Shown here piece by piece: positions 13,569-64,000 of a stretch of DNA of 64,000 nucleotides. Position 1 is the stretch's first letter. Each line of letters starts with the position of its first letter. The notes beneath the pieces are model-generated. The model was not told where the DNA came from and made no database searches. It worked only from the letters and a program-made list of their open reading frames with translations. Source of the DNA: Candidatus Krumholzibacteriia bacterium (GTDB taxonomy: Bacteria > Krumholzibacteriota > Krumholzibacteriia > Krumholzibacteriales > Krumholzibacteriaceae); the NCBI GenBank assembly GCA_023131975.1, contig JAGLYV010000084.1, forward strand, positions 1,065 through 65,064, read 5' to 3'. Both the position numbers and the translations under genes were made by a program.

Positions 13569-14864
<1,296 letters not shown>

Positions 14865-14950: not shown

Positions 14951-15050
14951 CTATCATGACAGCAAGGGAAAGTAGTGGAGAGAACAGTTTTCTTACCGCA
15001 AAGCGGGGCCCTTTTACTATCAGGCCGACTATAAAAAGTAGTTAAGAGAA
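14905..15050. repeat. three imperfect direct copies of a GAGAAC(G/A)G(C/T)TTTCTTACCGCAAA-type unit (terminator-associated intergenic repeat)
   Basis: gagaacggctttcttaccgcaaaagcgcccccctttt / gagaacagttttcttaccgcaaagcggggcccttttac / gagaacggctgctgtac seen in sequence. Confidence 0.5.
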
Positions 15051-45931: not shown

Positions 45932-46018
45932 GAATTGTCGATCTGCAAGGATTCCTGCCGCTAGCGCTGGCGGTGGCGCGGATCGTATATTAATTGTCGG
46001 GCCGATCTGGGGGTAAAG

Positions 46019-47747: not shown

Positions 47748-50700
47748 GTGAAGATCGTGTGTGACGCAACGATAAGATTCCTGCATGCGGCTATTGCCGT
47801 ATCGGTGGTGTGCATCATGTCCGCGGCGCTGTTGAGCGGACCTGCACATGCACAGACATATACCAGATTACAGGTGCTTCTGCCCGGTGAAGTCGAGGCC
47901 CCCGGCACGCCTCAGGGCAAGGCGGGCTCTCCGGCGGCCCAGGCCGCGGGAGTACCCTTTACCGTCCGGATAAGGGCATGCGACGACCAGTGGAATACGG
48001 TTTCGATTACCCACGCGGTTTCCATAACCTGCTCTGATGAGAGCGCCACATATCCGGACCAGGCGACACTCAGCGGCGGCGAGGTTCAATTCAGTGCCAC
48101 GCTCAACGCCGGAGGGTCGTTCACATTTACTACGGGTGACCTCACAGATCCGACCGTCCCCGACGCAGTGTCCGCATCGGTCGATGTGATGGTGCTGCAG
48201 GGTTTCCTCTTCAACGACATCAGTCAGAAGCACTGCTACGCAGGCGTACCGGAGAACTATACGCTGACCGCGGTGGATGCCGGCGGCAATACGGTCACGG
48301 GTTTTACCGGCACCGTCAGACTCCGCCAGATCACCAGTTACGGAGAGGGGCGTATATCCCCGGAGCAGATCACTCTGACCGCTGGAACGTGGAGCGGACA
48401 GTTAACGATGTATCGTGCCGACGAGAGCAGCATCAACCGGGGCAACGTCAACATATACGCCTACCTTGAGGCGAACTCCGCGAAGAACGGGACGAGCGAT
48501 CCGTTTATCGTTCATCCCGGCTCGTTTTCCCAGCTGCAGATCGTAGTACCGGGGCAGGGTCCTCTGCCCGGGAGCGTCTCCGGCCTGACCGGTTCGCCCG
48601 CTACGCAGGCGGCCGGCACGGGATTCGTAGTCGACGTCTTCGCAACCGACCAGTACTGGAACCTTGTTCCCAGCGCTGACGTGGTGAGAATAGTTTCCAG
48701 CGATCCGGCCGCGAACACGCCCGTATCGGGACCGCTCACCGGTGGGCTCGGACAGTTTGCCGTGTCGCTCGGGACGGTCGGTGCGCAGACGCTCAGCGTG
48801 AGCGACCAGACAAACGGTTCGATATCGGGGATGACCAGCGAGCCGATCACCGTCATACCAAGCGCGCCGGACCATTTCGAGATCAGCGCGATATCCTCGC
48901 CAGTTACAGCCGGTGTACCGGTCAGCGTTACGATAACGGCCGCCGACATCGGTGGAAACACCATACCGGACTACCAGGGTGATGCGATCCTTGCCGCCAA
49001 TACGGGACCGGGAAGCATATCGCCCGAGGCGATCACTTTTTCCGGTGGTGAGTGGACCGGCGACATGGTCTTCAGGGGCGCCGGAGCGGCGGTCTCGTTC
49101 ACATGTTCCGACTACTCGACTCCCCCGAACACGGGTACGAGCGGGAATTTCCAGGTACTCCCCGGCCCGTTCGAGGGACTCCAGGTTCTGCTGGCGGGAC
49201 AAATGGCCCGCGGCGGCACCGTATCGGGGTACAGCGGTGAGCCGACTGCCCAGAACGCCGGTTCCCAGTTCACGATCAGGGTACGTGCCGTGGACTATTA
49301 CTGGAACCTTGTACCGGACGTAAACGACCGCGTCTCACTCGGATCGACCGATCTATTTGCCGATATGCCGGTCGAGACGACCCTGACCGGAGGAGAAATA
49401 TCCCTGCCCGTCACACTCTATTCGTGCGGGATGCAGACTATAAACACATCGGACCTCGACACGCCGGGCATCTCGCCTCACACGTCGAGGCCGGTCGAGA
49501 TAATCCCGGGATCGTACGCGAGGATACTACTACTCGCTCCGGGCGAGGAGCCCGCGCCGGGCACCGAGTCGGGAAGGACCGGGACAGCTACAGACCAGTC
49601 GATAAGCTATTCGTTCACCGTGACGGTCTATGCCACAGATCAGTGGTGGAACCCCGTGACCGGTGTGAGCGACGTCATACATCTGACGTCCAACGATCCG
49701 CTTGCCGAGCTTCCCGCCGACGCTCCGATGTCGAACGGGCGGGCCGACATGTCCATGAGGCTCTCCACGGGAGGGTACCAGCAGATCACTGCGTCGAACG
49801 TGACCCAACCGGTGATGCCGGTAAGCACGACCCAGGTCAGGGCGATCTCGAGCGGTTTTCATCTCGAGGCCGAACTGACGCCTCCGATGGTAAAGGCCGG
49901 GGAGGAGTTCCAGTTGACAGTGAAGGTCACCAACGACGCGGGGAGCGTCATCCAGGAGATAAACTCCATCGTCAACCTGACCGTGATGAACGCGTCGACA
50001 CAGGACCCCGGCAGGGGCGACCTTCTCGTGACGAGTTTTCAGCTGCTCCAGGGGCAGAGAATCGTCACCGAGACGTACACCTTTGTCGAACCGATAGTCA
50101 TAGTGGCGACCGACGACATGGGTAACGATCCGGCTGCTACCGGCGTCCTCGTCGTCAACCCGGGCGATCCCGATGCGGTCGATCTCTCGTGCAGCCCCTC
50201 GTGGGTCGGAGGAAACAAACACGCGGCGGTCAGCGCCGCAGTGGTAGACGCCTTCGGCAACGGTATTCCCGATCTGGAGGTCGTGTTCGACCTCATAGCG
50301 GGAGAGGGCGAGTTGACTCAGCTCGATACGTTGACCGGCGACGATGGCGTCGCAGAGGCGGACTTCTACAGTTCGCGTGTACCGGGGGTCAGCAGGGTAC
50401 GCGCAGAGTGTGGTCTTCTCATCGCCGAGCTCGACATCGAGACGGCGCTGGTAAACCCCAACCTGCCAGGCGGGACGATAACGAACTATCCGAACCCGTT
50501 CCATCCAGGAGAGGGTTCGACGACGATCGCATACAAACTTTCCGACAATGCCAATGTGAAGCTGGAGATCTACACGCTCAGCGGTACATTCGTGCTGCGC
50601 GAGGATTTCTCCGCAGGCTCGCAGGGTGGAATGTCGGGACTTAACGAATTCGCATGGGACGGCCGCAACGGAAACGGTGCATACGTCTCCAGCGGAGGCT

Positions 50701-50777
50701 ATATCGTACTTGTCGAGGCGGAGGGCCACGGCGAGACACTACATGTAATGCGCCGCAGAGTCGGCGTAGTGCGCTAA
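47748..50777 (+). CDS. large secreted Ig-like-repeat protein with T9SS C-terminal sorting domain (T9SS cargo)
   Basis: Signal peptide ending AHA|Q; many about 100-aa beta-rich repeats; C-terminal NYPNPFHPGEGSTTIAYKL...VKLEIYTLSGTFV...FAWDGRNGNG..VSSGGYIVLVEA matches the Por/T9SS type-A CTD. Confidence 0.75.
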   Translation: MKIVCDATIRFLHAAIAVSVVCIMSAALLSGPAHAQTYTRLQVLLPGEVEAPGTPQGKAGSPAAQAAGVPFTVRIRACDDQWNTVSITHAVSITCSDESATYPDQATLSGGEVQFSATLNAGGSFTFTTGDLTDPTVPDAVSASVDVMVLQGFLFNDISQKHCYAGVPENYTLTAVDAGGNTVTGFTGTVRLRQITSYGEGRISPEQITLTAGTWSGQLTMYRADESSINRGNVNIYAYLEANSAKNGTSDPFIVHPGSFSQLQIVVPGQGPLPGSVSGLTGSPATQAAGTGFVVDVFATDQYWNLVPSADVVRIVSSDPAANTPVSGPLTGGLGQFAVSLGTVGAQTLSVSDQTNGSISGMTSEPITVIPSAPDHFEISAISSPVTAGVPVSVTITAADIGGNTIPDYQGDAILAANTGPGSISPEAITFSGGEWTGDMVFRGAGAAVSFTCSDYSTPPNTGTSGNFQVLPGPFEGLQVLLAGQMARGGTVSGYSGEPTAQNAGSQFTIRVRAVDYYWNLVPDVNDRVSLGSTDLFADMPVETTLTGGEISLPVTLYSCGMQTINTSDLDTPGISPHTSRPVEIIPGSYARILLLAPGEEPAPGTESGRTGTATDQSISYSFTVTVYATDQWWNPVTGVSDVIHLTSNDPLAELPADAPMSNGRADMSMRLSTGGYQQITASNVTQPVMPVSTTQVRAISSGFHLEAELTPPMVKAGEEFQLTVKVTNDAGSVIQEINSIVNLTVMNASTQDPGRGDLLVTSFQLLQGQRIVTETYTFVEPIVIVATDDMGNDPAATGVLVVNPGDPDAVDLSCSPSWVGGNKHAAVSAAVVDAFGNGIPDLEVVFDLIAGEGELTQLDTLTGDDGVAEADFYSSRVPGVSRVRAECGLLIAELDIETALVNPNLPGGTITNYPNPFHPGEGSTTIAYKLSDNANVKLEIYTLSGTFVLREDFSAGSQGGMSGLNEFAWDGRNGNGAYVSSGGYIVLVEAEGHGETLHVMRRRVGVVR

Positions 50778-50791
50778 GGCGGGAGGAGCCC

Positions 50792-52072
50792 ATGAAACGC
50801 TTACATAAATACGTAAATACGAGGCGTGCGGCGTCCCTCGCTCTCGGTCTCTGCATTCTCGCAGTCACCGGGACAGGCGCCCTTGCCCAGGACGAACGGG
50901 GCGGCGCCCCTGGCGACTGGCTGTCAAATTACGCCACCGCGCGTACCGTCGGAATCGGCGGCGCGTTCGTCTCAGTCGCCAACGAGCCGGTGGGCGCGAT
51001 CTGGAACCCCGCCGCGCTTACCCAGGTATTCCAGAACGTGATCTTTGTAGAGACGACCCGTCTTTTCGAGGAGACGACGATCAACACATTCAGTTTCGGG
51101 ACTCCGGAGCGGTCGCTGCTCCCCGGATTCGGGTTGACCGTCATATCCCTCAGTTCGGGCGCATTTGAAAAGACGAACGAACTCAACGATGTGATCGGCG
51201 AGTTTGAGGAGGGCGAGACAGCCTTCCTGCTCTCCGCATCAAAGAGCATAAGCAGGCGTGTCGCGTTCGGTGCCAACCTCAAGGTCATACGACAGAGCAT
51301 CGACGAGTTCAGCGCCTCGGGCGCTGGTGCCGATTTCGGTGTCCTGTTCCACGCTATGCCATCGGTGACGATCGGGGCCTCGGTCCTGAACATCGGTGGT
51401 CCCGGACTGAAGCTGAGGGAGATCGAGGAGACTTATCCCGCTGATTACCGCGGCGGAGCGACCCTGCGATTTCTCGGCGGCCGGGCGATGCTGACTACCG
51501 AGATCGCTGGCAGGGCTGGCTATGGGGCCAAGCTCCACGCCGGCACAGAGTTTCAGGTCCACCCGATGCTGGCGCTGAGGATGGGCTACAACGACAGTTA
51601 TTTTTCCGGTGGCGCGAGTTTCGATCTCGCAGGCGGGATGAGGTTCGACTACGGCATGTCCGACCACTTGCTCGGCACGGTCCACCGGATCGGACTCTCC
51701 TACAGCTTCGGCGGTTTCTACGCCAGGGCGCAGGCAGATCCGCCGGTCTTTTCCCCGATAGGGGTGCAGTCGGTCACAAGGTTCGATCTCGAGGCGAGGA
51801 CAAAGGCCGACGCGGTCAGATGGAGTCTCGATATCGTCGATAAATCCGATCAGGTCGTTCGCAGGTTCAGAGGCGCGGGCAAGCCTCCCGCGCACGTCAT
51901 GTGGGACGGAAAGAACGAGAAAGGCATGCCTCTGGCCGACGGTGTCTACAGGTACCAGCTCGTGGTCATAGACGCTGAGGGCAGGGAGACCGATGGGAGG
52001 CAGCAGACTGTCGAGATCATGACGGCTGGCCCCCAGGGTAGCGTACCGATCATAGTAGGTAAGGAAAGCTAG
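50792..52072 (+). CDS. PorV/PorQ-family (FadL-like) outer-membrane beta-barrel protein with C-terminal FlgD-Ig-like domain
   Basis: Signal peptide ending ALA|Q; ARTVGIGGAFVSVANEPVGAIWNPAAL motif typical of the PorV/PorQ/FadL family; C-terminal WDGKNEKGMPLADGVYRYQLVV Ig-like module; start at ATG 50792 with SD GGGAGGAG. Confidence 0.5.
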   Translation: MKRLHKYVNTRRAASLALGLCILAVTGTGALAQDERGGAPGDWLSNYATARTVGIGGAFVSVANEPVGAIWNPAALTQVFQNVIFVETTRLFEETTINTFSFGTPERSLLPGFGLTVISLSSGAFEKTNELNDVIGEFEEGETAFLLSASKSISRRVAFGANLKVIRQSIDEFSASGAGADFGVLFHAMPSVTIGASVLNIGGPGLKLREIEETYPADYRGGATLRFLGGRAMLTTEIAGRAGYGAKLHAGTEFQVHPMLALRMGYNDSYFSGGASFDLAGGMRFDYGMSDHLLGTVHRIGLSYSFGGFYARAQADPPVFSPIGVQSVTRFDLEARTKADAVRWSLDIVDKSDQVVRRFRGAGKPPAHVMWDGKNEKGMPLADGVYRYQLVVIDAEGRETDGRQQTVEIMTAGPQGSVPIIVGKES

Positions 52073-52089
52073 GAAAGCCACCCGGGAGG

Positions 52090-55000
52090 GTGATAATCAT
52101 GATTCGTATGAGGCATATGATGATAAATACGGTGGTGATGGCCCTGGTGCTCTGCGCGATGCTCGTGCCTGGCTTCACCTCCGCCCGCTGCGAAGGTGGG
52201 GAGAAGGGCACACCGACCCTTACCGGCGCAGGCATGGCGCTCGAAAAAGCCAGACTGCTGCCGCACGAGGCGAAGAACAAGGCCCTTCACAGTGCCGCTG
52301 CCTCTGTCGCGTCGATCCTTGACGCCGGTCTTCCCAAGGAGAGGCAGAGCGCCGCGTGGTTCCTCTCGGCAGAGATAAATTTCGCCCTGGGGCATTACGA
52401 AGATGCAGTCAGGGAGTATGGAAAGGCCGGGGACAAGGACAGGGAGAAGATCTACCGGGACGATGCTGCCGCTGCCCATATAATGGCGCTCGAAGCGTCC
52501 GGAAAGGACGAAGAGGCGGCCAGGGCCTGGAAGAAATGGTTCGACAGGTATTACGACAGTCCCCTGGTTCCCGAGGCGATGCTGGCCTGCGCGTGGAACG
52601 CGCTGAGGCGCGGCGATATCTCTGGAGCCTCGAAGGAACTCGACGATCTGGAATCGCGACATCAATGGATGGAGAGTGACCGACGCACCGTACTGGCACG
52701 GTCGCTGATACGCTACGGGGGTGGGGATCACGCCGGGGCGTTCACCGCACTTGAATCGCTTGAAGATTCGCCGGAGGTCATTTACCTGCGGGCCCTCTGC
52801 CGCGAGGCGGCAGGGGAGACCCTCAGGGCCGCAGCTGGATACCAGGAAGTGAGCGAGCGGTGGCCGCACTCACCCCTGCGGGATTCAGCGATGATCGCGA
52901 AGGCCGACATCTTTCTTCACGCCAGAGCTTATACGAGCGCGGCGGAGGAGATGGCCCGCGTCGTCAGAGAATCGCGTCGTGGGGACATTCGGCGTGAGGC
53001 ATCACTGCGCCAGGCCGTCGCGGTATTTCTCGATGGCGGGACCGAACGCGCGGTCGAGCTTCTTAAAGAAGTGACCGTTGCCTGTGCCGGCACCGAGGTC
53101 GCTGCCCGGGCCCAGTTCCTTCTGGGCGAGTCGCTCTTCGGAACGGGCGCCTACCAGGAGGCGATAGTAGAGTTTAACGGAGTGCTGTCCGAGTACTTCG
53201 AACACGATCTGGCCGCCCGTGCCCAGTACAGGATCGGCCAGTCCCTCGACGCCCTCGGTCGAGGTGCCGAGGCGACGAGCTCCTATCAGGCTGCGGTGGC
53301 GGGGTATCCGCTTTCGCCAGAATCCCCGGCGGCGGCATACCTTGCCGGAGTCGGGCTTCTCGACATGGGCAGTCCCCTGGTCGCCGCGCCGTATTTCCAG
53401 CTGGTGATCGACAGGTATGCACGTTCGGACAGCTCGGGCATGTTTATCTTCGCGACCGACGAGCACCAGGAACTTGTTGAGGCCTCGCTCTGTCTTCTCG
53501 AGTATTCGTACCACCGTGCCGGCGACCTTGGACAGTTGTCCGGGGCTCCGCACCTGATGCTTCAGAGGATGCCTCCGAGCGATTCGCCGTGGCGCGCTTA
53601 CTCGGTGCTGATCGACGCCGACGCACTTGCCTCGCAGGCCCGATATGACGAGGCCGAGGCGATGCTTACCGGGCTGATAGAGAAATTTTCATCGCACGCG
53701 GCAGTTGTCCCCGCGAGCAGGCTGCTCGCCTGGACGTATGCGCGCCAGGGCAGGGACGAACTGGCAATGAAGACCGAGGAGAGGATGCTGGCGCGTTACG
53801 CCTCAAGTGGCGACGACGAGTACCTCGGCTCGGCTTATTTCAACAAGGCGAACATACTGTTCAACAGGAAGGAATACGGGGAAGCGGCCGAGTCTTACGA
53901 CGATTTTCTCAGGCGGTTCCCCGAGAACGATAAACATTTCCAGGCGCTGTACAGGGCAGGACTCTGCTACCAGCGGCTCGATCACAATGGCGACGCAGTC
54001 GACCGCTGGGAGGCGCTCGTTGCTGAGGACTCGACCAGTACGCTGGCCGAGAAGGCACTGGTACGCGCCGGCGACATGTATTTCCGGGCCGGCCACTACG
54101 AGGATGCCAGGCGCTGCTACGGCGCGCTTCTTCAGCGTTTCATCTCGAGCGACAAGGCTCCTCTGGCGATGCTCCGGCTCGCGCAGAGCGAATACAACTC
54201 GGGCGGAGACGAAGAGGCGCTGACCCTCTATTCAAAGGTCATAGAGCGTTTCCCCGACAGTTACGCGGAGCGTGAGGCGGAACGCGGGATAGAGCAGGCG
54301 CTCTACCGCCTCGGCCAGCGGGACGACGGGACCGAGGTCCTCGTCAGGCTCGTCGAGCAGCATGGGACGAGCCCATTCGCCGCCGATGCCCAGTTCGAGA
54401 TCGCCATGCGCAGTTACAAGGTCGAAGATTATGAGGAGTCGGCCGAACAGTTCAGGAGGGTGACGAGCCAGTTCCCCGCATATTCAGCTGCCGACAGGGC
54501 TCATTACCTGATGGCCGAGTCGTACCGCAAGGCGGGAAAGACGAGGGAATCGAGGCTCGCATGCGAGCAGTTCGTCAACTTCTTTCCTCATAGCGAGTTC
54601 AGGCCGACCGTCCATTTCCGCCTCGGTTCTCTTAGGTTCGAGGAAGGCAAGTATATGCAGGCCGCCGTGGATTTCACCGGCGTTCTCGACGAGGGAGCAC
54701 CAGACGAGATCATGGCTGCCGCGCTGTACAACCTTGCCCTCTGCAGGAGAATGCTCGGCGAGACCGCGGCCGCTACGGAGAACCTCGAGAAGTACCGCGA
54801 GACCTATCCGTCTGGCAACGGCCGTACTGCGGACGTCGCCTACCAGTTAGGAGACATCCACGAGGAGCAGGGCAGGCCGGAGAAAGCGATCAAGGAGTTC
54901 GAGCGTGCCCTCTCGGCAAAACCGCCAAAACCGATGTCGATAGAACTTCGCTACCACATAGGTGTGTGCAGGGAGGAACTGGGCGAGGACGCTGCCGCGA

Positions 55001-55212
55001 TCGCTGTCTACGAGAAGGCGATCAGTCGGGGCGGGAAGAACGACCCGTTCAGGCTTCTCGCGCTGGCCAGATGCGCCGGCCTCTACGAGGATAAAGAATC
55101 GTGGGACAGGGCGATAACAATATACAAGGATCTTATAAGGAATTCGCAGGACGAAGAGCTGGTGCTGGCCGCAGGCGAGCGTGTCGCCCAGCTCGAAGCC
55201 ATCGCCAGGTGA
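52090..55212 (+). CDS. large tetratricopeptide-repeat protein (secreted/periplasmic)
   Basis: N-terminal hydrophobic signal region, then about 1,000 aa of TPR-like helical repeats. Confidence 0.75.
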   Translation: MIIMIRMRHMMINTVVMALVLCAMLVPGFTSARCEGGEKGTPTLTGAGMALEKARLLPHEAKNKALHSAAASVASILDAGLPKERQSAAWFLSAEINFALGHYEDAVREYGKAGDKDREKIYRDDAAAAHIMALEASGKDEEAARAWKKWFDRYYDSPLVPEAMLACAWNALRRGDISGASKELDDLESRHQWMESDRRTVLARSLIRYGGGDHAGAFTALESLEDSPEVIYLRALCREAAGETLRAAAGYQEVSERWPHSPLRDSAMIAKADIFLHARAYTSAAEEMARVVRESRRGDIRREASLRQAVAVFLDGGTERAVELLKEVTVACAGTEVAARAQFLLGESLFGTGAYQEAIVEFNGVLSEYFEHDLAARAQYRIGQSLDALGRGAEATSSYQAAVAGYPLSPESPAAAYLAGVGLLDMGSPLVAAPYFQLVIDRYARSDSSGMFIFATDEHQELVEASLCLLEYSYHRAGDLGQLSGAPHLMLQRMPPSDSPWRAYSVLIDADALASQARYDEAEAMLTGLIEKFSSHAAVVPASRLLAWTYARQGRDELAMKTEERMLARYASSGDDEYLGSAYFNKANILFNRKEYGEAAESYDDFLRRFPENDKHFQALYRAGLCYQRLDHNGDAVDRWEALVAEDSTSTLAEKALVRAGDMYFRAGHYEDARRCYGALLQRFISSDKAPLAMLRLAQSEYNSGGDEEALTLYSKVIERFPDSYAEREAERGIEQALYRLGQRDDGTEVLVRLVEQHGTSPFAADAQFEIAMRSYKVEDYEESAEQFRRVTSQFPAYSAADRAHYLMAESYRKAGKTRESRLACEQFVNFFPHSEFRPTVHFRLGSLRFEEGKYMQAAVDFTGVLDEGAPDEIMAAALYNLALCRRMLGETAAATENLEKYRETYPSGNGRTADVAYQLGDIHEEQGRPEKAIKEFERALSAKPPKPMSIELRYHIGVCREELGEDAAAIAVYEKAISRGGKNDPFRLLALARCAGLYEDKESWDRAITIYKDLIRNSQDEELVLAAGERVAQLEAIAR

Positions 55213-55246
55213 CTCACCGGCGATCACGTAGAAGGAGAGTGTGAAG

Positions 55247-55969
55247 ATGAATGTAGATATCAACTGGCTGGGAGTCATAACCAGCAGCCCGATCTTCCTC
55301 GTACTCATAGGTATGAGCGTGGTTACGCTTGCGGTGGCCATCGAGAGGGTCTACTACTTCTCGAGGCGGAAGGACCGGGCTGACGAGACCCTCGACCGCG
55401 CAGTGCGAGAGATAAGACGCGGAGACCGCGACGAGGCGAGACGGATATGCCGATCGTGCAAGCATCCTGTCGGAGCCGTTGCCTGTTCGATCATCGACAG
55501 CGAGGGGCTTGATGGCGAGAAGGCCGAGGAACAGTTGCAGATTTCGCTGAGCCAGCAGAGTCTGTTGCTGGAGAATAATCTCGGGCTACTCGGAACAATG
55601 GCCGCCGTGGCCCCTCTTATCGGGCTACTTGGAACGGTATGGGGGATCATGCGGGCTTTCCGCGACATGTCGGCCATCGGGTCGGCCGCGCCTTCGATCG
55701 TGGCGGCCGGCGTCGCCGAGGCCCTGACCACAACGGCGGCGGGACTGATAATCGCCGTGCCCGCACTGATGTTGTACAACCACCTGACGAGGAAGATCCA
55801 CGTCATGCTGACGGTCGCCGAGAACAACACCCGTTCGCTCCGTCTTGAGCTGGAGAAGGCGCCGTCGAAAAAGGTCGGCGCGGACAACCGGGATAAGATC
55901 TACGGAGAGCCCGACAGCGCGGTCATTGGACGTATCGCCGAAGAACTGGAGACGGTAACTGCCGAATAA
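55247..55969 (+). CDS. exbB: MotA/TolQ/ExbB proton-channel family protein
   Basis: Three TM helices and the conserved C-terminal channel region; SD GAAGGAGAG; an alternative GTG at 55241. Confidence 0.8.
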   Translation: MNVDINWLGVITSSPIFLVLIGMSVVTLAVAIERVYYFSRRKDRADETLDRAVREIRRGDRDEARRICRSCKHPVGAVACSIIDSEGLDGEKAEEQLQISLSQQSLLLENNLGLLGTMAAVAPLIGLLGTVWGIMRAFRDMSAIGSAAPSIVAAGVAEALTTTAAGLIIAVPALMLYNHLTRKIHVMLTVAENNTRSLRLELEKAPSKKVGADNRDKIYGEPDSAVIGRIAEELETVTAE

Positions 55970-55979
55970 GGAGAATGCC

Positions 55980-56390
55980 ATGTTGTCGAGCAAATCGCCG
56001 AAAAGTAGCGGCGGAATACACGAGATAAATATGACGCCACTGATCGACGTCTCTCTCGTGCTGGTCGTCATGCTTCTCCTGCTCACTCCTCTCGCCTTCG
56101 AGTCGAGTATAGCGATACGCAAGGCCGCCGCCAGCGCGAAGGCTTCGGAGAAGAAACTGAAGGAGGAGCGCATCGAGTTGAGTGTCGTATCGGAGGACAG
56201 CCTCCTCGTGAACCGGGTCATGGTGCCGAGGCGCGGGTTGTCCGTGATGCTCGGGCCGATGCTCGAGGGAAGAACCGATCGCCGGGTCGTCATAGAATGT
56301 CGTAACGGGGTCACGCACGGGGTATTTGTAGACGTCCTTGACCAGGTAAAAATATGCGGGGCCGGCGAGATAGCCGTGCTGGGGAGGTAG
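55980..56390 (+). CDS. exbD: biopolymer transport protein ExbD/TolR
   Basis: INMTPLIDVSLVLVVMLLL single TM ExbD signature. Confidence 0.8.
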   Translation: MLSSKSPKSSGGIHEINMTPLIDVSLVLVVMLLLLTPLAFESSIAIRKAAASAKASEKKLKEERIELSVVSEDSLLVNRVMVPRRGLSVMLGPMLEGRTDRRVVIECRNGVTHGVFVDVLDQVKICGAGEIAVLGR

Positions 56391-56397
56391 AAGAGTC

Positions 56398-56826
56398 ATG
56401 AAACGAACGAGACGCGGCAGTAGAATGCCGCCTAGAGCGACGATAAACGTCACGCCGATAATAGATGTGGCGCTCGTACTCGTGATCATACTGCTGATTA
56501 CCGCGCCCATGCTGGCCCTGGCTGACATTGACGTCACCCTGCCGGCCGCGGTGTCGCGGGGGAGCGAAGATGATGTAAAAATCAATATCACGCTGAGCAA
56601 AGCGGGAGAACTGGCGATAAACGAGAATACAATCCGGAGAGGCGACTTTGGCTCGTTGCTACGGTCGCTGCTGTCGGATTCCGACAACAAGGATGTTCTC
56701 GTAGTGCTCCGCGCCGACATGGAAGTGCCATACTCGTCGATCAAGTCGATACTTGGCGAGGCGCGGGCCGCCGGAGCGAACAGACTGGCTATCGCGACAC
56801 TCCAGAAAGGCGGGTGCGGGAGATGA
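56398..56826 (+). CDS. exbD: biopolymer transport protein ExbD/TolR (second copy)
   Basis: INVTPIIDVALVLVIILLI signature. Confidence 0.8.
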   Translation: MKRTRRGSRMPPRATINVTPIIDVALVLVIILLITAPMLALADIDVTLPAAVSRGSEDDVKINITLSKAGELAINENTIRRGDFGSLLRSLLSDSDNKDVLVVLRADMEVPYSSIKSILGEARAAGANRLAIATLQKGGCGR

Positions 56827-57749
56827 ATGCTTACGCACTGAGCATCGAACTGGAGAAACAGCAGTCGAGGACGAGGAAGATCGCTGGTATCAGTCTGTTG
56901 ATACACGCCCTGCTTGCTCTACTCCTGTTGCTTCACCGGGCGATTGTGCCGGAGGCGATGGCCTTGACTGAGATAAGCTGGATAGAGCCCGAACCAGTCG
57001 TTCCCGTTGCGGCCGCTGCCGTAGTGAAGACGCGGCGCCCGGTCCGGCGGACTCTTCCGTTCCCGAAGCAGCAGGCCGAGCACTTCGTCAGAAAGACGGA
57101 GAAGAGCGATTTCGCGCCGCAGCCTCAGAGGGACAGGGCTGTCAAGGACCGTCTGGATCGCAAGTTTGCGTCGCTTGAGCAGACCACGCAGCGTGACCGC
57201 CCGAAGATAGCCTCGCTCGCGGCCTCGAACATATCACACAGGCCGGCGCTTGCTGCCGTGCCGGATAGAACGGAGAACAGGAGTGGGGCAATAGACCTGG
57301 AGCGCACCGACAGGCCCGTCGCGAGTCCCGTTCAACTGGCCAGGAGCGAGAAGCGCCCATCTACGGCTCCGATGAAACTCAGTACGATCCCGGAGAAGAC
57401 CGTCAAACCGGCGACCGTGGCGAGGGCCGATTCGACGGCGCGCAGAATGATAGACGGGATGAGTCTTGTCGGACCGGTCGCCGACAGGATGCTGGTAAAA
57501 TACGGCAGGCCCGGATATCCCGACTGGGCCAAGCGCGAGGGCATAGAGGGTTCTGTGGACCTGTACTTCATCGTCCTGCCCAGCGGCAGGGTGAAGGAGA
57601 ATGTACTCGTTCAGAAGACATCGGGGTTCGAGGATTTTGATAAAAACGCGATCGACGCTCTTCTTGCCTGGGAGTTCGAGCTGCTGGGAGGCGGCAGGAC
57701 CGGCGAGCAGTGGGGAGCGATCACCTTCGATTATCGGCTCAGTGATTGA
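56814..57749 (+). CDS. tonB: energy transducer TonB-family protein
   Basis: N-terminal TM anchor, Pro/Ala-rich linker, C-terminal TonB domain (YPDWAKREGIEGSVDLYFIVLPSGRV). Confidence 0.75.
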   Translation: MREMNAYALSIELEKQQSRTRKIAGISLLIHALLALLLLLHRAIVPEAMALTEISWIEPEPVVPVAAAAVVKTRRPVRRTLPFPKQQAEHFVRKTEKSDFAPQPQRDRAVKDRLDRKFASLEQTTQRDRPKIASLAASNISHRPALAAVPDRTENRSGAIDLERTDRPVASPVQLARSEKRPSTAPMKLSTIPEKTVKPATVARADSTARRMIDGMSLVGPVADRMLVKYGRPGYPDWAKREGIEGSVDLYFIVLPSGRVKENVLVQKTSGFEDFDKNAIDALLAWEFELLGGGRTGEQWGAITFDYRLSD

Positions 57750-57782
57750 TGGGCCGACGAAGAAACGAGGGAGTGGACCGAA

Positions 57783-58742
57783 ATGAGATACTTGAAGAAG
57801 AAGTTTGTCGTACTGTCGGCGTTCATCGCCACTTCGGCGGTCCTTCTTGCCGTTCCGGGCGCCGGGGTGGTGGGGGCCGAGCCGGACAGTGCCATGGTCA
57901 TCGAAGGTGGAAGCGAAGGAAAGGTCTTCAGAAAGATGACGATCGAGGGCGAGGACAGGTTCAGGATAGATTTCGAGCGCCCCGTCCTGCGGATCCACCT
58001 CGACCCCGCCGAAGCGTCGGGCCTCGACTGGGACAATACATGGGATGTGCTCGCCGAGGGCGATATCGACCTTCGTATTCCCCTCGCGGTGCTTTCTGCC
58101 GCCTGGTCTTCGCCGTACCTGCCGTGTCCCTGGCTCGACGAGTACGCGAGTGGGGAGATCGTGCGGTTTCAACCTTCGCTGACCGGTGTCGAGCGCTGGA
58201 AACTGATCATAGCCGATTCGAGAAGCGGAGAAGTCAGATCTTTCGATGGTAAAGGCAACCCTCCCGACAGGATCGGATGGGACGGTCTTTCGGAAGACGG
58301 AACGCCGATGCCGCCGGGGTATACTTATTCCTATGTCGTAGAAGCCTGGGACCGGGCGGGAAACAAGCGTAATTTTGTCGGTAAGGGGTTCAGCCTTCCC
58401 GCGTACCGGGTGACAACCGGCGAAGGGATGGTCTTTCTCTTTACCGGGGGTGAGCTGGATCTCCGCACCGCGTCGCGCGGTTCCGCCATCAGGACGCCGG
58501 TCTCCGTGCTGCTCGAGGCGGCGAGCAGGATCAACCAGGAAAGCGTATCGGACAGGAAGGTCCGGGTGGTGGTGACGGCGAGGACATACGATCAGGCCGG
58601 CGGAATGGCTGAGGAGGTCGTGCGGTCGCTGGCCACCCTGTTGATCGGCAGCCCGGCACGCATACAGCATGTCGCCGACGTCAGGGCCGATGCTCCCGAA
58701 GAGGGAACGGTCGTGGTCATTCTCGAGAAGCCGGAGAAGTAG
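57783..58742 (+). CDS. secreted hypothetical protein with FlgD-Ig-like module
   Basis: Signal peptide; WDGLSEDGTPMPPGYTYSYVVEAWDRAGN Ig-like motif; no other recognisable domain. Confidence 0.5.
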   Translation: MRYLKKKFVVLSAFIATSAVLLAVPGAGVVGAEPDSAMVIEGGSEGKVFRKMTIEGEDRFRIDFERPVLRIHLDPAEASGLDWDNTWDVLAEGDIDLRIPLAVLSAAWSSPYLPCPWLDEYASGEIVRFQPSLTGVERWKLIIADSRSGEVRSFDGKGNPPDRIGWDGLSEDGTPMPPGYTYSYVVEAWDRAGNKRNFVGKGFSLPAYRVTTGEGMVFLFTGGELDLRTASRGSAIRTPVSVLLEAASRINQESVSDRKVRVVVTARTYDQAGGMAEEVVRSLATLLIGSPARIQHVADVRADAPEEGTVVVILEKPEK

Positions 58743-58821
58743 ATACAGGCCCCGTTCACGGGTCGGAGAGCGGAGAGTCTTCCGAGTCGTTTGTTTCAAC
58801 GGGATGATATTCATTGACAAA

Positions 58822-58848
58822 GGGCCGTCTCGAGAGATCGGCCCTTTT
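58822..58848 (+). terminator. rho-independent terminator closing the tonB cluster
   Basis: GGGCCG-TCTCGAGAGAT-CGGCCC followed by TTTT. Confidence 0.6.
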
Positions 58849-59306
58849 ACAACAATGCTCATTAATATTGAGCCAAACATGGATACATATGTACCCGGGG
58901 AAGCGCAAGCCCTTCCTTGTCGCCGCTCTACCGTAGCAAAAACGCTACTATACAGGGCCTGTACCGTAGCACTTTTGCTGCGGTATCCGATCGTGCGGGT
59001 GAGAGGCCTGGTTGAAGAAAGCGGCAAACACCGTTGTTACTCGAAGACCGCGTTCGCAAATGCAGCATTATGCTGACTTATCACGAACCGACTGCAAGGA
59101 TTCTTGCCGCCAACGGTGGTGGTAACTTTATTTGACACTTCACATTAAGTCAAAAGTAAGTAGTGAAAAAACGCTATTGTTGTGTTACAATCCTCCTTCC
59201 AGGAATCTAGGGGACCACATCAAGGGCATACAATCGGATTCTTAGAATGAAATGTTTGAATGTTATAAAGCTTCAGGTAGGCTAATTGTATGTTAGGCAT
59301 TTAGTT

Positions 59307-59945
59307 ATGGAAAATCTAGTAATACGAAAAGTGAAGGCATTAGATGGTCTGCATTATTCATTCGGGCTTATTGACCATTATTATGAGGAGTTATATCCAC
59401 TATGTTCTAAAATCAACACTGATAATAAGAAGGTTATCCCTACACTAGCAAGATGCTGGGGATTTGTGGATGCTCTCCACCGCGCCAGAGAGATCTCCCA
59501 AGCAATTCCTGGTCTTGGAGGCAAGAATCCTCACCTCAAATCTTTTCTGAAATCAACTGTTCTCGCGAAAGAATATCGTCATTATATTCAACACTTACGA
59601 AGAGAACTCAACAAGCAGCCTACAAATACTTTCCCAGTATGGGGTGTATTGTCTTGGATAGATGAATACGATGAAACGAAGAGCCACACAGCCTGGATTG
59701 GAGCAAGATTACCCGGAACAACTTATTCGGGGCATGTTTTCGACACAGTTAACAAAAAATGGGTATCCCGTGTAAGTCTCAGCATTGCTGAAAAGAGTTT
59801 TAATTTTGATCCTATTTATGAAGCAGTCCAACAATTTGAAGCCTTTGTTATTCCTTGGATTATTGAGAAAGCTGGAATAAAGATTAAGGTAACAAACGAA
59901 CTTCCCATTATAAGTATGAAGGCTGTTATAAATAAGGATTCCTAG
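59307..59945 (+). CDS. hypothetical protein (low-GC orphan, no recognisable domain)
   Basis: ORF about 212 aa; about 38% GC versus about 58% in flanking core genes; start uncertain (the track ORF begins at TTG 59286). Confidence 0.45.
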   Translation: MENLVIRKVKALDGLHYSFGLIDHYYEELYPLCSKINTDNKKVIPTLARCWGFVDALHRAREISQAIPGLGGKNPHLKSFLKSTVLAKEYRHYIQHLRRELNKQPTNTFPVWGVLSWIDEYDETKSHTAWIGARLPGTTYSGHVFDTVNKKWVSRVSLSIAEKSFNFDPIYEAVQQFEAFVIPWIIEKAGIKIKVTNELPIISMKAVINKDS

Positions 59946-59954
59946 CTGTCGATT

Positions 59955-60040
59955 GCAACCGTCGGAGTCTTGCCTGTTACGTTGGCTTCGGGGTAGCAGT
60001 CGCGCCAGGAAAGCCCGCGGCTGAATCGAAGATTGTTGGT
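59955..60040 (+). repeat. copy A of an ~86-bp conserved intergenic leader element
   Basis: About 75% identical to 62730-62816; shares the core ...GCAGTCGCGCCA(A)GG...TGAA.CGAAG.TTGTT.GGT. Confidence 0.5.
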
Positions 60041-60084
60041 AGCACTATCACCGCACGGTTGTTATCTAGAGGGGGGTTGGTACC

Positions 60085-61056
60085 ATGAGCGATTTTGGAG
60101 ATCTCGAACGGGTTGACCTTAGAGAGGCATGGGCGAATGAAGCTACCCAATTCACTCCGTGGGTCGCTGAGAACCTTGCTCTCCTTGGTGATGCGATCGG
60201 AATCTCTCTTGAGCTCGAGCAGACGGAAAAGCCCGTGGGGAGCTTTTCTGCAGACGTGCTTTGCAGGGACACCCTCACCTCGCGTCCGGTGCTGATCGAG
60301 AATCAGATCGAACGGACTGATCACACGCATTTGGGGCAGACGATTACCTACGCTGCTGGTATCGGCGCCTCGACGGTTGTATGGGTCGCTGCGCAATTCC
60401 GTGAAGAACATCGGGCTGCGCTTGACTGGCTGAACGAACACACTGACGAGGATCTAGCCTTCTTTGGACTTGAGATAGAGGTGTGGCGGATTGGTGCCTC
60501 GGCAATGGCACCGAAGTTTAACGTTGTGTGCAAGCCGAATGACTGGGCACGGCAGGTTCACGCCGCAGCGATAAACCCCGCTGCTTTCACGGAAACACAG
60601 AGTGCGCAGGTTGAGTTCTGGACAAAGTTCGTCGAGTTTACACATCAAAGGCAAAGCCCTCTCCGCTCGGGAACGCCCGGACCCTACAACTGGGTTGGTC
60701 ATCCTGTGGGGCGGAGTGGCTTCGTCCTCAACTCGGTCTGGTCTACGTACAACTCGGCGACAAATTCTTTCTGCGGCGAGATTCGGGAAGATCTTGTGCT
60801 CTCCACAACCAGTGCGAAGGAGAACTATGCAAGGCTTCTTGAGCGGAAGGATGAGGTCGAGACAGCCTTGCGTGAGCATGGTGTGACGGAGGAGATTCAC
60901 TGGTACAATCCAGAGAACGCACAGTTGTGCAGGGTGTATGTGCGGAGAGATGCCAATATCGAGAACCGCGACGACTGGGCGAATCAGGAGCGCTGGCTGC
61001 TTGACCGTGCCGAAGCTTTCCTAGCGGTCTTCGGTCCCGTCATTCGCAAACTTTGA
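60085..61056 (+). CDS. hypothetical protein, probable PD-(D/E)xK-like nuclease N-terminal domain with DUF4268-like C-terminal domain
   Basis: N-terminal SADVLC...VLIENQ...Y pattern compatible with a restriction-endonuclease-like fold; overall family assignment from memory, not verified; SD GAGGGGGG; GC about 55%. Confidence 0.55.
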   Translation: MSDFGDLERVDLREAWANEATQFTPWVAENLALLGDAIGISLELEQTEKPVGSFSADVLCRDTLTSRPVLIENQIERTDHTHLGQTITYAAGIGASTVVWVAAQFREEHRAALDWLNEHTDEDLAFFGLEIEVWRIGASAMAPKFNVVCKPNDWARQVHAAAINPAAFTETQSAQVEFWTKFVEFTHQRQSPLRSGTPGPYNWVGHPVGRSGFVLNSVWSTYNSATNSFCGEIREDLVLSTTSAKENYARLLERKDEVETALREHGVTEEIHWYNPENAQLCRVYVRRDANIENRDDWANQERWLLDRAEAFLAVFGPVIRKL

Positions 61057-61150
61057 GGCTGGCAGGGGAAGGTTCTAGCCCCGGCATCCAGCGGACTACG
61101 CTATGCTAGCCGCGAGGTACTACACTGAAGAAGCAAAAAAGGAAAAATCC

Positions 61151-61636
61151 ATGTACCAGGCAGGAACAACACTGAAGTTAAATTTTGGTTCATACTTTCA
61201 TTATGGAATAGCTGATGGAAATGGAAATGTCATTCATAATTCAAAGAAACGTGGAATGGTTACATCTGAGCCAGAGGCGGATTTTGCAGAAGGAGAAGTA
61301 ATACAAGTCAGCGATATTACCAGTGATAACCCGAACTTAGCAGTAATGATGGCAGAACGCTATTTAGGCATGCCCTATAACCTGATAAAAAGCAATTGTG
61401 AGCATTTTGTTCGTCTTGCACATGGGCTGGAAATTGAAAGTACGCAAATTCAACAGTACTTATTGATAGTTTTAGGAGCAGGGGCAGCCATTAAAAGTGA
61501 TGATGTGTTTGTTAAGTCAATTGGAGGAGCAGTTGTCTTGGCATCATTGCTCACCCCATCAGAAGAATGTCCTTTTAAGAATGCTACAATAGCCGGTCTT
61601 ATTGCGGCTGGTTTGGTGGTTTTTGCAAGAAACTAA
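61151..61636 (+). CDS. LRAT/PLAAT (H-rev107)-like NlpC/P60-superfamily acyltransferase/phospholipase with C-terminal membrane anchor
   Basis: YFHYGIADGNGNVIH (His-box, compare PLAAT YRHWAIYVGDGYVVH) and SNCEHFV catalytic Cys motif (compare NCEHFV); C-terminal hydrophobic helix; low GC about 40%; the track ORF starts at 61103 but the ATG at 61151 is preceded by an A/G-rich SD. Confidence 0.75.
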   Translation: MYQAGTTLKLNFGSYFHYGIADGNGNVIHNSKKRGMVTSEPEADFAEGEVIQVSDITSDNPNLAVMMAERYLGMPYNLIKSNCEHFVRLAHGLEIESTQIQQYLLIVLGAGAAIKSDDVFVKSIGGAVVLASLLTPSEECPFKNATIAGLIAAGLVVFARN

Positions 61637-61689
61637 AGCTTCAAACAATTCAAATGCACACAGATTTAGAAATGTGAGGACAATAGAAA

Positions 61690-62724
61690 GTGATTGAGCA
61701 ATCTTGGATTCAAGAAATACTTCGAACGAAAACTGATGGCCGTCTTTACCATCGTGAAGGTCAGGAGCTTGAATTTAAGGAACAGTTTAACTTAGCTGGA
61801 TTAGCTGAATACTTTCGTGACTTCGCAGCTTTTGCAAATAACAGGGGTGGGTACCTAGTATTTGGAGTAACGGATAAACCAAGGCGTCCGGCAGGTTTGT
61901 CAAGTAGAGCGCTTGAACAATTTGAGAAAATAGATCCAGAAAAGATTAGTGGGTTCTTACTAAAGTTGTTCTCACGATCTATTGACTGGGAGCAGTCTTC
62001 TCATGAAATTGGCGATACTTCATTTGGTGTAATACGAGTTTATGAAGCTCGTGAAAAACCTGTTATTGCAAAGATGGATGAAGGAAAGCAACAAATAATA
62101 AAAAATGGTGAAGTATATTATCGTTACGCAGGTAGAACCCAGAAAATTCAGTCTGCTGAATTGGAAAGTATTATAAATAGACGGGTTCAGCAAAATAATA
62201 AGCAGTGGCTCGACCTAGTCCAAAAAATCGGAGTCGCGGGACCAAATAACGCTGCAATTCTTGACACAGAACGTTCTATTATTGAAAAGGATGAGGCAAA
62301 GATTCTTGTTATTGACAACGAACTTGCAAAAAAGATGAGTTTTATCAAAGAGGGTCAATTCAAAGAAAAATATGGCACTCCTACTCTCAAACTAGTTGGT
62401 GATGTTGTTCCTGTTGATAGAGTAGAAGTTGTCAAACGTGTTCGCGAGAATTTAGTAAAAGCATATCCATATTCTGCGGCTGAACTTGCGCAGGCAGTTG
62501 AAGTTATTGTACCAAGTGCAAAAAGGAATAAGATATGGGAAACTATACGTGATAACGATTTAAAGAATAATGTTGATTATTCAGCTTTCAACTTTCGGAA
62601 CAAAAAACAGGAAGACAACTACAAAGAAACAGGAATACTTGCTTTAAATACACCATCGATCTACAATCAAAAAGCTGTAGATTATCTTGTAAATGTCCTA
62701 AGGACAGAAAATGGAGACGTCTGA
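61690..62724 (+). CDS. Schlafen-like AlbA_2 domain protein (putative nucleic-acid-binding regulator/sensor)
   Basis: EGQELEFKEQF...FANNRGGYLVFGVTD matches the AlbA_2 (divergent AAA/Schlafen) signature; C-terminal ~200 aa unassigned; GTG start; low GC about 38%. Confidence 0.65.
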   Translation: MIEQSWIQEILRTKTDGRLYHREGQELEFKEQFNLAGLAEYFRDFAAFANNRGGYLVFGVTDKPRRPAGLSSRALEQFEKIDPEKISGFLLKLFSRSIDWEQSSHEIGDTSFGVIRVYEAREKPVIAKMDEGKQQIIKNGEVYYRYAGRTQKIQSAELESIINRRVQQNNKQWLDLVQKIGVAGPNNAAILDTERSIIEKDEAKILVIDNELAKKMSFIKEGQFKEKYGTPTLKLVGDVVPVDRVEVVKRVRENLVKAYPYSAAELAQAVEVIVPSAKRNKIWETIRDNDLKNNVDYSAFNFRNKKQEDNYKETGILALNTPSIYNQKAVDYLVNVLRTENGDV

Positions 62725-62729
62725 CACTT

Positions 62730-62816
62730 GCAGCCGTAGGAGCCTTCCCTATCACGTCGGTCGTAAGGCAGCAGTCGCGCCAAGGTCGTTCGCAGTTGAA
62801 GCGAAGGTTGTTCGGT
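62730..62816 (+). repeat. copy B of the ~86-bp conserved intergenic leader element
   Basis: See copy A; lies 40 bp upstream of the type IIG gene start. Confidence 0.5.
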
Positions 62817-62855
62817 CTTGGAAAAATTAAAGTCAATTCTAAGAGGGATACATCT

Positions 62856-64000
62856 ATGCCAGCTCCGGAATCAGTAAAGAAGTTAATTGAAACATTCGGC
62901 AACAATATAGATTTCTATAAATCCGACCAATACAAGGAAGATCAACTACGGCAGGAATTCCTGAACCCGTTCTTCAAGGCGTTGGGTTGGGATATGGACA
63001 ACACCGCCGGGCTGGCGCCGCAATACCGCGATGTTATCCATGAAGTATCCATTAAGATCGGTAGCTCCACCAAGGCGCCAGACTACGCCTTTTCCATCCA
63101 CGGACAATATAAGTTTTTTCTCGAAGCCAAAAAGCCTGCCGTCAATGTGCAGAAAGATTTTGACCCGGCCTACCAGCTCCGACGCTATGGTTGGTCAGCT
63201 AAACTGCCCATCTCGATCCTGACCGACTTCGAGGAATTTGCAATATACGACTGTCGTAAGCGTCCTAAGCGTGGAGAGCGTGCATCCACATCACGGCTCG
63301 CCTATTTTAAGTACACCGACTATATTGAGAAGTGGGATGAACTTAGCGCAACCTTCTCCAAGGACGCCATCCTCAATGGCTCGTTCGACAAATATACGGT
63401 CGATGCCAAGCGCCATCGTGGATCTGATACTGTTGACGACGCCTTCCTGAAGGAAATCGAAAACTGGCGAATCCTGCTGGCGCGCAATTTTGCCCTGCGC
63501 AATCCAACATTGTCCGTCCGCGATCTCAACTTTGCCGTCCAGAAAACCATTGACCGCCTCATCTTTCTGCGCATCTGCGAAGACCGCGGCACAGAGGACT
63601 ACAAGCGGCTGGCCACATTGCTCAGCAGCGGGCGCATATATCCTCGTCTGCTCGACCTGTTCAAACAGGCGGATACGCGCTACAACTCTGGCCTATTCCA
63701 CTTTTCCGCCGAACGCAGGCGCGGCGCGCCCGATAACGTTACGCCGAAGCTGGAACTTGATGATCGAGTACTCAAGGAGATTATTTCCAAACTCTATTAT
63801 CCTGAATCGCCCTACGAATTTTCTGTTTTGCCTGCTGACATCCTCGGCCAAGTCTACGAGCAGTTTCTCGGCAAGACTATCCGTCTCACCTCTGGGCACC
63901 AGGCAAAGATCGAGGAAAAGCCCGAGGTCCGCAAGGCTGGTGGTGTTTACTATACGCCAAGCTATATCGTTGACTATATTGTGAAGAATACTTTAGGTAG
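62856..64000 (+). CDS. type IIG restriction-modification enzyme (HsdR_N-like N-terminal domain + N6-adenine methyltransferase), 3' end beyond window
   Basis: Open frame to window end (not in ORF track because no stop); N-terminal EDQLRQEFLNPFFKALGWD type-I-R N-terminal-like motif; GVYYTPSYIVDYIV methyltransferase motif near residue 370. Confidence 0.75.
   Translation, partial: MPAPESVKKLIETFGNNIDFYKSDQYKEDQLRQEFLNPFFKALGWDMDNTAGLAPQYRDVIHEVSIKIGSSTKAPDYAFSIHGQYKFFLEAKKPAVNVQKDFDPAYQLRRYGWSAKLPISILTDFEEFAIYDCRKRPKRGERASTSRLAYFKYTDYIEKWDELSATFSKDAILNGSFDKYTVDAKRHRGSDTVDDAFLKEIENWRILLARNFALRNPTLSVRDLNFAVQKTIDRLIFLRICEDRGTEDYKRLATLLSSGRIYPRLLDLFKQADTRYNSGLFHFSAERRRGAPDNVTPKLELDDRVLKEIISKLYYPESPYEFSVLPADILGQVYEQFLGKTIRLTSGHQAKIEEKPEVRKAGGVYYTPSYIVDYIVKNTLG

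Follow-up and report, generated by a model that had tools for sequence, protein, structure and literature searches.

Near the downstream end of a 64,000-nucleotide stretch of DNA from Candidatus Krumholzibacteriia bacterium (assembly GCA_023131975.1, contig JAGLYV010000084.1; "the window" below), two diverged copies of an intergenic element, here called A and B, stand on either side of a 2.7-kb block of genes, and the question that the locus raises is what such a pair represents. An earlier note on this DNA had offered a shared cis-regulatory or RNA leader element, or recombination scars at the boundary of a cassette. We put at about 85% the probability that A and B are attC sites belonging to a cassette array in Candidatus Krumholzibacteria that carries anti-phage genes and has no integrase.

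Architecture of the repeat pair

The similarity of A and B is above chance. A repeat finder aligned window positions 59946-60037 with 62721-62812 over 92 nucleotides (nt) without gaps at 71% identity, the second-longest among the direct repeat families of the window; MAFFT left 61 of 87 columns invariant (about 70%) between 59955-60040 and 62730-62816, and BLASTN against the window returned 73.6% over 87 nt (E = 1.7e-8). The figure of ~75% identity over ~86 bp given in the earlier note was therefore slightly high for a similarity that is itself sound. The core that it called invariant, GCAGTCGCGCCA, occurs exactly at 59996 in A and 62771 in B and nowhere else in the window; the shared tail was recovered as TGAA.CGAAG.TTGTT, but its closing.GGT portion aligned only with a 1-nt gap in copy A (MAFFT). 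The copies do flank genes for DUF4268, LRAT/PLAAT-like, and AlbA_2 proteins (Pfam). No copy beyond A and B was found in the 64 kb by the repeat finder, BLASTN, or a covariance model of our own (R1), and outside it the search yielded a third copy, C, 7 kb past the window, together with homologues in metagenomes and other genomes.

Both copies are imperfect palindromes. In full they extend from about 59940 to 60041 (A) and from about 62719 to 62816 (B), reaching at their 5' ends into the stop codon of the upstream open reading frame (ORF), which is TAG at 59943-59945 and TGA at 62722-62724, and their lengths of 102 and 98 bp fall within the attC range of about 57-141 bp. As described by Nivina et al. 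(2016, PMC5027507), an attC site has boxes of the form RYYYAAC and GTTRRRY, a central spacer that is unpaired, and a terminal structure that varies; on the arm of the top strand that bears AAC, bases 16 and 23/24 are extrahelical, and an obligatory 6-bp stem separates them (PMC5027507). This numbering was checked on the aadA1 attC of plasmid R100, GTCTAAC AATTC GTT[C]AAGCCG[A]CGCCGC, which lies directly 3' of aadA1.

On the plus strand, copy A (59940..60041; 104.7 bits with R1) follows that layout from end to end. Its R'' box, TCCTAGC (59940-59946), holds the upstream stop codon TAG and is succeeded by a 2-nt spacer, then TCGATT, a bulged G at 59955 (position 16), CAACCG, and a bulged T at 59962 (position 23); then come the stem, the variable tip, the 3' arm CCG-CGGCTG-AATCGA, the spacer AGATT, and the R' box GTTGGTA (60035-60041). 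A scanner for attC architecture, described below, matched A with 11/12 pairs. The minus strand of A folds into a single long hairpin (z = -3.6 with RNA parameters), and the same hairpin is the minimum-free-energy structure with DNA parameters, but there its z is only -1.55. Two defects are present, the change of AAC to AGC in R'', which keeps the stop codon, and a single mispaired position in the second block of 6 bp. The R' box reads TACCAAC on the bottom strand, with the AAC cleavage triplet intact, and copy A looks close to functional.

Copy B (62719..62816, plus strand; 67.5 bits with R1) is probably a decayed attC. Its R''-like box, GTCTGAC (62719-62725), holds the TGA stop codon of the AlbA_2 gene, differs from GTCTAAC by a single transition that again preserves the stop codon, and sits 4 nt too near the L box. 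Bulged bases are present as G at 62730 and T at 62737, the R' box is GTTCGGT (62810-62816), and the terminal GTT is intact here as in A; only 4/6 of the second block is paired. B showed no significant fold on either strand with RNA or DNA parameters and fails the architecture scanner. In A, B, and C alike, R'' contains the stop codon of the upstream gene, and all sites are on the plus strand.

That both copies lie about 40 nt ahead of a start codon speaks for the proposal of an RNA leader or cis-regulatory element, a 5' untranslated region or riboswitch-like structure controlling the DUF4268 and restriction-modification (RM) genes. The distance of 40-45 bp claimed earlier is correct for A (43 nt, 60041 to 60085) and slightly too long for B (39 nt, 62816 to 62856), and the plus strand can form G-U-containing pairings. 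attC hairpins in polycistronic mRNA could also secondarily alter the expression of downstream genes. Across the family of related elements, however, the next start lies about 20 to 44 nt away, and what stays fixed is the upstream stop codon; the element follows unrelated genes, and it occurs beside intI. The plus-strand RNA folds do not surpass shuffles (z = -0.2 and +0.4), and both strands fold equally, as a DNA palindrome would. Rfam, which has no attC family, gave 0 matches at gathering score in the window, and at E <= 10 within 59800-63000 only a chance SAM-V match inside the AlbA_2 gene. ARAGORN returned nothing relevant, and a consensus scan found no promoter-like site between attC-A or attC-B and the following start codon. 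The overlap of R'' with the upstream stop, the end at GTT, the bulge geometry, and the context of the homologues favour an attC over a leader, and we regard control of the downstream genes by an RNA leader as scarcely probable.

Relatives in cassette arrays and beside an integron integrase

Relatives of A and B were sought with exact-pattern scans of GTDB genomes and metagenome contigs and with R1. The pattern scans recovered genuine homologues from a single GTDB genome (L004) and from five metagenome contigs (L006, L008, L011, L014, and L015); the matches in L005, L007, L009, L010, L012, L013, and L016 were chance or coding and were placed outside the family. In alignment, the members have a conserved 5' arm (TTGCAGCCGTCGGAGTCTTCCCTGTCACGG), a variable central hairpin, and a conserved 3' arm (CCGCGCCAGGAAAGCCCGCGGCTGAAGCGAAGGTTGTT), and the similarity among them stops directly after GTT. 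Counted from the first base of R'', the layout is R'' at 1-7, 2 unpaired nt, 6 bp, a bulge at 16, 6 bp, a bulge at 23, the stem, and the variable tip, followed on the other arm by a 5-nt spacer and R'. Intact R'' boxes are ACCTAAC in L006, ACCCAAC in L008, GCCTAAC in L021, and CTCTAAC in copy C, and the L006 member has the R' box GTTAGAC.

The structure is supported by the pattern of substitution in a 12-member alignment, where 80.5% of cells were paired, against 33-39% when partners were slid, compensatory changes occurred in 13 pairs, and the covariation score of 0.151 was matched by 0/500 shuffles. The tip differs among members in both length and sequence, with covariation (for example CCTGC/GCAGG versus CTTGC/GCAAG); in copy C it is a 13-nt loop only. 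Of the structural evidence that the earlier note had looked to, covariation is present, while the plus-strand RNA, as given above, folds no better than its shuffles.

Bulges at 16 and 23 are found in all family members and in two further sites of the island, Y and Z, introduced below. Every attC examined (those of L006, L020, L021, and the window) has G at position 16 of the ORF-sense strand, and this family has T at position 23 of that strand, so that the bottom strand carries C16 and A23. Bottom-strand bulges elsewhere are "usually a G" at 16 and "a conserved T" at 23/24 (PMC5027507). The central spacer is another departure: usually 5-6 nt unpaired in attC sites, it measures 2 nt in the 5' arm and 5 nt (AGRTT) in the 3' arm here, and it is short because the adjacent 6 bp are paired. 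In other respects the elements resemble classical attC sites, or 59-base elements (aadA1/aadA7, VCR). They lie 3' of cassette ORFs, have RYYYAAC...GTTRRRY ends, the AAC being altered in the window copies, and form an imperfect hairpin, carry bulges 16 and 23 with a 6-bp stem on the AAC arm of the ORF-sense strand, and have a variable tip and a length of ~70-120 bp; sites within one array resemble each other, and family members are associated with IntI.

The context of the homologues is that of integrons. Contig L006 is an array of single-ORF cassettes, 3.6 kb long, whose canonical attC sites include GTCTAAC...GTTAGGC at 1160-1282 and GCCTAAC...GTTAGGA at 3268-3385, with more between, and a family member at 1873-1978, its R'' (ACCTAAC) and R' (GTTAGAC) perfect, fills one attC slot. 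In the complete 4.1-Mb genome CP070727.1 (L020), a 311-aa integron integrase (UCF07116.1, at 12678-13613; NCBI name "integron integrase") reaches 455.9 bits on TIGR02249, for which the cutoff is 265; two cassettes trail it on the same strand, and the second has an attC that belongs to the family (54.8 bits with R1). The co-orientation of intI with its cassettes there is the known "inverted integrase" arrangement (PMC4889954). This genome is related to the window organism, its FlgD_ig orthologue being 54% identical. A long array of small ORFs in L021-L023 has three R1 matches.

Another observation on L006 is that positions 1855-1870, GACGAAGTTGTTAGGT, 13 nt ahead of the next R'', resemble the 3' end (L'-spacer-R') of another family attC; this may be what is left of an attC x attC event, or else an "empty" cassette.

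A dispersed intergenic palindrome or terminator family of the repetitive extragenic palindrome (REP) or miniature inverted-repeat transposable element kind, unrelated to integrons, would also be palindromic, intergenic, located after stop codons, and targeted by IS110/IS1111 insertion sequences (IS), which are known to target REP sequences too (PMC11187229). One solitary copy outside any array fits that description, at L004 3927-4030 (metagenome-assembled genome [MAG] AUK263, JAGHBT010000236.1), where a member with a diverged 5' arm follows a CsgG-like gene. The members that stand in arrays with canonical attC sites and beside IntI do not fit it, nor do the RYYYAAC/GTTRRRY boxes and the bulges at 16 and 23, which are attC-specific; the copies are confined to the island within 72.7 kb of chromosome, where a dispersed family would be expected elsewhere as well, and the hairpin lacks the T-tract that would follow it in a terminator. 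We consider a palindrome or terminator family of this kind very unlikely. The solitary copy may represent one cassette that entered a secondary site; the CsgG-like gene has a higher GC content than its flanks.

Copy C, detected with R1 and BLASTN, lies on the plus strand at L001 19769-19836 and adjoins an IS1111-type element (L001 18436-19786; L002 9263-10613), also beyond the window end. When the IS is removed, C is a compact ~68-bp attC with AAC intact, perfect 6+6+2-bp stems, and bulges at 16 and 23. The transposase is of the RNA-guided IS110 family (NF033542, 309.5 bits; Pfam DEDD_Tnp_IS110 and Transposase_20) and is encoded on the strand opposite to the island genes. The element has a non-coding region of about 240 nt 3' of tnp, subterminal inverted repeats (GGACTCCTCC / GGAGGAGTCC), and the ends TATCTGGACTYCTCC... 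and ...GGAGGAGTCCATTCCATCA; a long non-coding region downstream of tnp and subterminal inverted repeats are traits of IS1111, members of which target one attC end (PMC11187229). In five loci, namely copy C (L001/L002), L020, L021, L011, and L014, a related IS adjoins one and the same point of the attC-like element. The insertion is exactly 12 nt past the start of R'', as in CTCTAAC-TC-TCG^ATT (C), ATCTAAC-CG-TCT^CTT (L020), and GCCTAAC-TA-GCG^CAT (L021), these three being the loci where both junctions were seen; L011 and L014 contribute the right junction only. The elements share with the IS1111-attC group (ISPa21, ISKpn4, ISPst6) the DEDD transposase and the insertion in one orientation at one fixed position near an attC end, but they form a separate environmental lineage, targeting this attC family, which touches C and not A or B.

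The true 5' end of copy C is CTCTAAC-TC-TCG, directly left of the IS. A stretch at L001 18487-18512 (GATTGCAGTCGTATC...) was considered as its 5' half and rejected, as it belongs to the non-coding region of the IS and is conserved in the L020 and L021 copies. That same non-coding region, downstream of tnp, contains GATTGCAG-TCG-TATCT, which equals the 7 nt right of the insertion point, the 3 nt left of it, and the left end of the IS; the match makes it a candidate guide of the seekRNA/bridge-RNA kind for this attC family. In L001 the IS appears inactivated, with an ORF of 225 aa compared with 343 aa in L002.

The proposed cassette island and its borders

The window matches contig DAOVNZ010000010.1 of the MAG GCA_030629965.1, and L001 supplies 8.7 kb past the window, for a total of 72.7 kb. 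Upstream, core genes of about 60% GC encode TPR, ExbB, two ExbD, TonB, and FlgD_ig-domain proteins, and from about 59000 the GC content turns mosaic, at 39-56%. The first cassette ORF (59286..59945, plus strand; 219 aa from TTG, called as 212 aa from 59307; ~41% GC) ends within the R'' of attC-A and had no family match in Pfam or PADLOC. The interval from A to B (60036..62810, plus strand) carries a DUF4268 gene at 60085-61056 (56% GC), which PADLOC identified as PDC-S11 (E = 1.5e-109), an LRAT/NlpC-like gene at 61103-61636, and an AlbA_2 gene at 61690-62724, the last two assigned by Pfam, each of ~40% GC, and like it on the plus strand. The first gene of the cassette after attC-B encodes a 987-aa type IIG RM protein (Pfam; PADLOC REase_MTase_IIG, E = 7e-191), the 5' part of which occupies 62856..64000 on the plus strand before the gene runs past the window. 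Beyond it, L001 contains a 181-aa ORF, DUF4365, SIR2-like, and FRG genes, the IS110-family transposase gene on the opposite strand, and a core TPR gene; PADLOC identified FRG as PDC-S15 and DUF4365 as an Argonaute-associated REase domain. On this predicted gene content, the locus is a defence island.

Candidate sites were also sought on both strands of the 72.7 kb with a sequence-blind scanner of attC geometry, which required at least 2/3 of AAC, a GT-initial R', at least 10/14 box matches, a 4-11-nt spacer, and a stem of 3+6+3 bp around bulges 16 and 23 with at least 11/12 paired. It recovers 4 attC sites in L006. Three matches were returned, A, Y, and Z, all on the plus strand, intergenic, and within the island, compared with 0 or 1 match in each of twelve block shuffles (mean 0.25). 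Site Y (L001 16245-16305) lies between the DUF4365 and SIR2-like genes and site Z (L001 17524-17596) between the SIR2-like gene and FRG, and a weaker attC-like sequence, X (GTATAAC...GTTAGGT, L001 14704-14772), follows the 181-aa ORF. X, Y, and Z differ in sequence type from A, B, and C. The order of the array is then orf219, A, DUF4268-LRAT-AlbA_2, B, RM-orf181, possibly X, DUF4365, Y, SIR2-like, Z, FRG, and C. It comprises at least six cassettes, with single-gene anti-phage candidates and the type IIG RM gene. The earlier proposal of recombination scars at a cassette boundary was right in the boundary and not in the scars, which are attC sites, one largely intact (A) and one decayed (B). The decay of B would account for the three genes of differing GC content in one interval, and it probably fused formerly separate cassettes. 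The GC-rich DUF4268/LRAT junction at 61057-61130 may be a further degraded boundary; examined as an attC it was rejected, having neither AAC/GTT boxes nor a significant fold.

If A and B are attC sites, the locus is an attC-site cluster without integron-integrases (CALIN) as defined by Cury et al. (2016, PMC4889954). Like other CALINs, it has at least two attC sites sharing one strand (2.7 kb separates A from B, below the 4-kb limit), no intI or intI pseudogene nearby, cargo other than resistance genes, and an IS; it differs in that some intervals are multi-gene or long and in a bracketing ~60-bp direct repeat, described below, that the CALIN model leaves unexplained. The origins listed for CALINs are loss of intI, rearrangement, and insertion at a secondary site (PMC4889954), and there is an experimental demonstration of insertion outside att sites (bioRxiv 10.1101/2022.09.11.507474). 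Phage-defence cassettes have already been described in integrons (bioRxiv 10.1101/2024.07.02.601719; 10.1101/2024.07.02.601686), and the locus therefore adds a member to a known kind of element. As in mobile and sedentary chromosomal integrons, the defence cassettes here are compact and mostly single-gene (PDC-S11, PDC-S15, SIR2-like, REase-domain, RM); the host, an uncultivated member of the Krumholzibacteria, the lack of an integrase at the locus, and the unusually large 3-kb type IIG RM gene set it apart.

Several observations weigh against attC sites in a cassette array as the explanation of this locus. The bottom-strand extrahelical bases are C16/A23 in place of the usual G16/T23, a property described as usual rather than absolute (PMC5027507). 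Neither window copy keeps the conserved AAC of R'', which is changed to AGC in A and, displaced by 4 nt, to GAC in B, and B in addition has a 4-nt deletion, weak pairing, and no significant fold. No tyrosine recombinase, Phage_integrase, or IntI was found by Pfam among the larger window ORFs scanned or the island genes, and tblastn with the L020 IntI found no intI remnant in the 72.7 kb (nothing at E < 0.6). A search for IntI in the same MAG returned many environmental IntIs, none attributable to the MAG; the contigs bearing close homologues of IntI stop at the integrase. With three genes in 2.7 kb, the A-B interval is larger than a typical cassette, as is the 8.7-kb B-C interval, although the weaker attC-like sites X, Y, and Z split the latter into cassettes of one or two genes. 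Finally, an unrelated direct repeat of ~60 bp also brackets the island, and an integron model does not explain it.

The left copy of this repeat (CTACCGTAGCAAAAACGCTACTATA.AGGGCCTGTACCGTAGCACTTTTGCT) is at 58921..58985 on the plus strand, and the right copy, after the last attC, is at L001 19967-20025, equivalent to window ~71656-71714; about 58/60 positions are identical. The pair encloses the whole 12.7-kb island and is found at its borders only. Each copy holds two GTAGC...GCTAC hairpins, with weaker similarity running about 100 nt further, and had no Rfam match. It may be an att-like duplication made by a second mobility mechanism. A search for the empty site through orthologues of the FlgD_ig protein gave none, synteny not being conserved and the flanking-repeat motif being absent. 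The sequence at 59015-59047 (GGTTGAAGAAAGC...GTTGTTAC) was considered as a remnant of the leftmost attC and rejected; it aligns instead with sequence past the right-hand flanking repeat and is probably part of the flanking-repeat duplication.

These borders also bear on whether A and B could be att duplicates left by the successive integration of islets by a conventional tyrosine or serine recombinase. In such a tandem accretion, direct repeats would part blocks of differing GC content, as they do here, and the separate ~60-bp direct repeat around the island is in keeping with it. But the island genes include no integrase, the repeats reach only 71% identity where identical cores would be expected, and their hairpin architecture and homologues point to substrates of IntI. 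Tandem accretion by such a recombinase is accordingly a most unlikely origin for A and B, and attC sites of a cassette array remain the reading that we prefer.

Other features stand at the left border of the island. A promoter-like site on the plus strand at 59163..59191 (GTGAAA-17-TACAAT with TG), found by a consensus scan only, which is weak evidence, could drive the array. Just upstream of it, 59104-59125 form a terminator-like hairpin with a T-rich tail, and a 32-nt repeat of 84% identity (CTGCAAGGATTCYTGCCGC...GGT) occurs at window 59092-59123 and 45943-45974. The defence island is at the downstream edge of a GC-rich block (47748-59000, ~60% GC versus ~52% elsewhere) that encodes FlgD_ig/Big_1 surface proteins, a large TPR protein, and ExbB-ExbD-ExbD-TonB. 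Two other repeats were seen in the window, a pair of tandem 66-bp units of 71% identity at 14909-15040, between the AdoHcyase gene and a minus-strand ORF, and an 18-nt-periodic GATGAT/GAGGAT repeat at 29418-29538, which gives an acidic D/E/S-rich tract in a large plus-strand ORF.

Proposed recombination and significance

In the scheme that we propose, a single-stranded attC would fold into a hairpin composed of the R box (R''/R'), an unpaired spacer, the L box, two extrahelical bases, and the tip. IntI would bind the folded bottom strand and cleave at the AAC complementary to the terminal GTT, and the DNA between two sites would be excised or inserted as a circle. We infer recombination of these sites by IntI, and present or past activity of A, B, and C at this locus. 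It is possible, though we think it improbable, that this family and its neighbours in L006, L020, and L021 form a structurally distinct attC subclass (Krumholzibacteria-like, of the FCB group) and, separately, that the whole array moves as a single unit through a second recombination system, as the ~60-bp repeat around it could mean. The marks of such a subclass would be the first bottom-strand bulge, which is always C, the second, which is A in this family, the largely paired spacer, and the co-oriented integrase. If the integrase reads the bulged bases or selects strands differently, this would be a mechanistic variant of integron recombination, and the complementary bulged bases offer a concrete test of how far IntI depends on bulge identity.

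What appeared to be a leader motif thus becomes a defined mobile-genetic structure, in which the PDC-S11/DUF4268, type IIG RM, DUF4365-REase, SIR2-like, and PDC-S15/FRG genes would be cassettes. A taxon-specific attC family with its covariance model and a matching IS1111-type element could be used to mine metagenomes for further cassettes. For the organisms themselves, the attC reading would extend the stockpiling of anti-phage genes in integrons to the uncultivated phylum Krumholzibacteriota and to an array that has no integrase.

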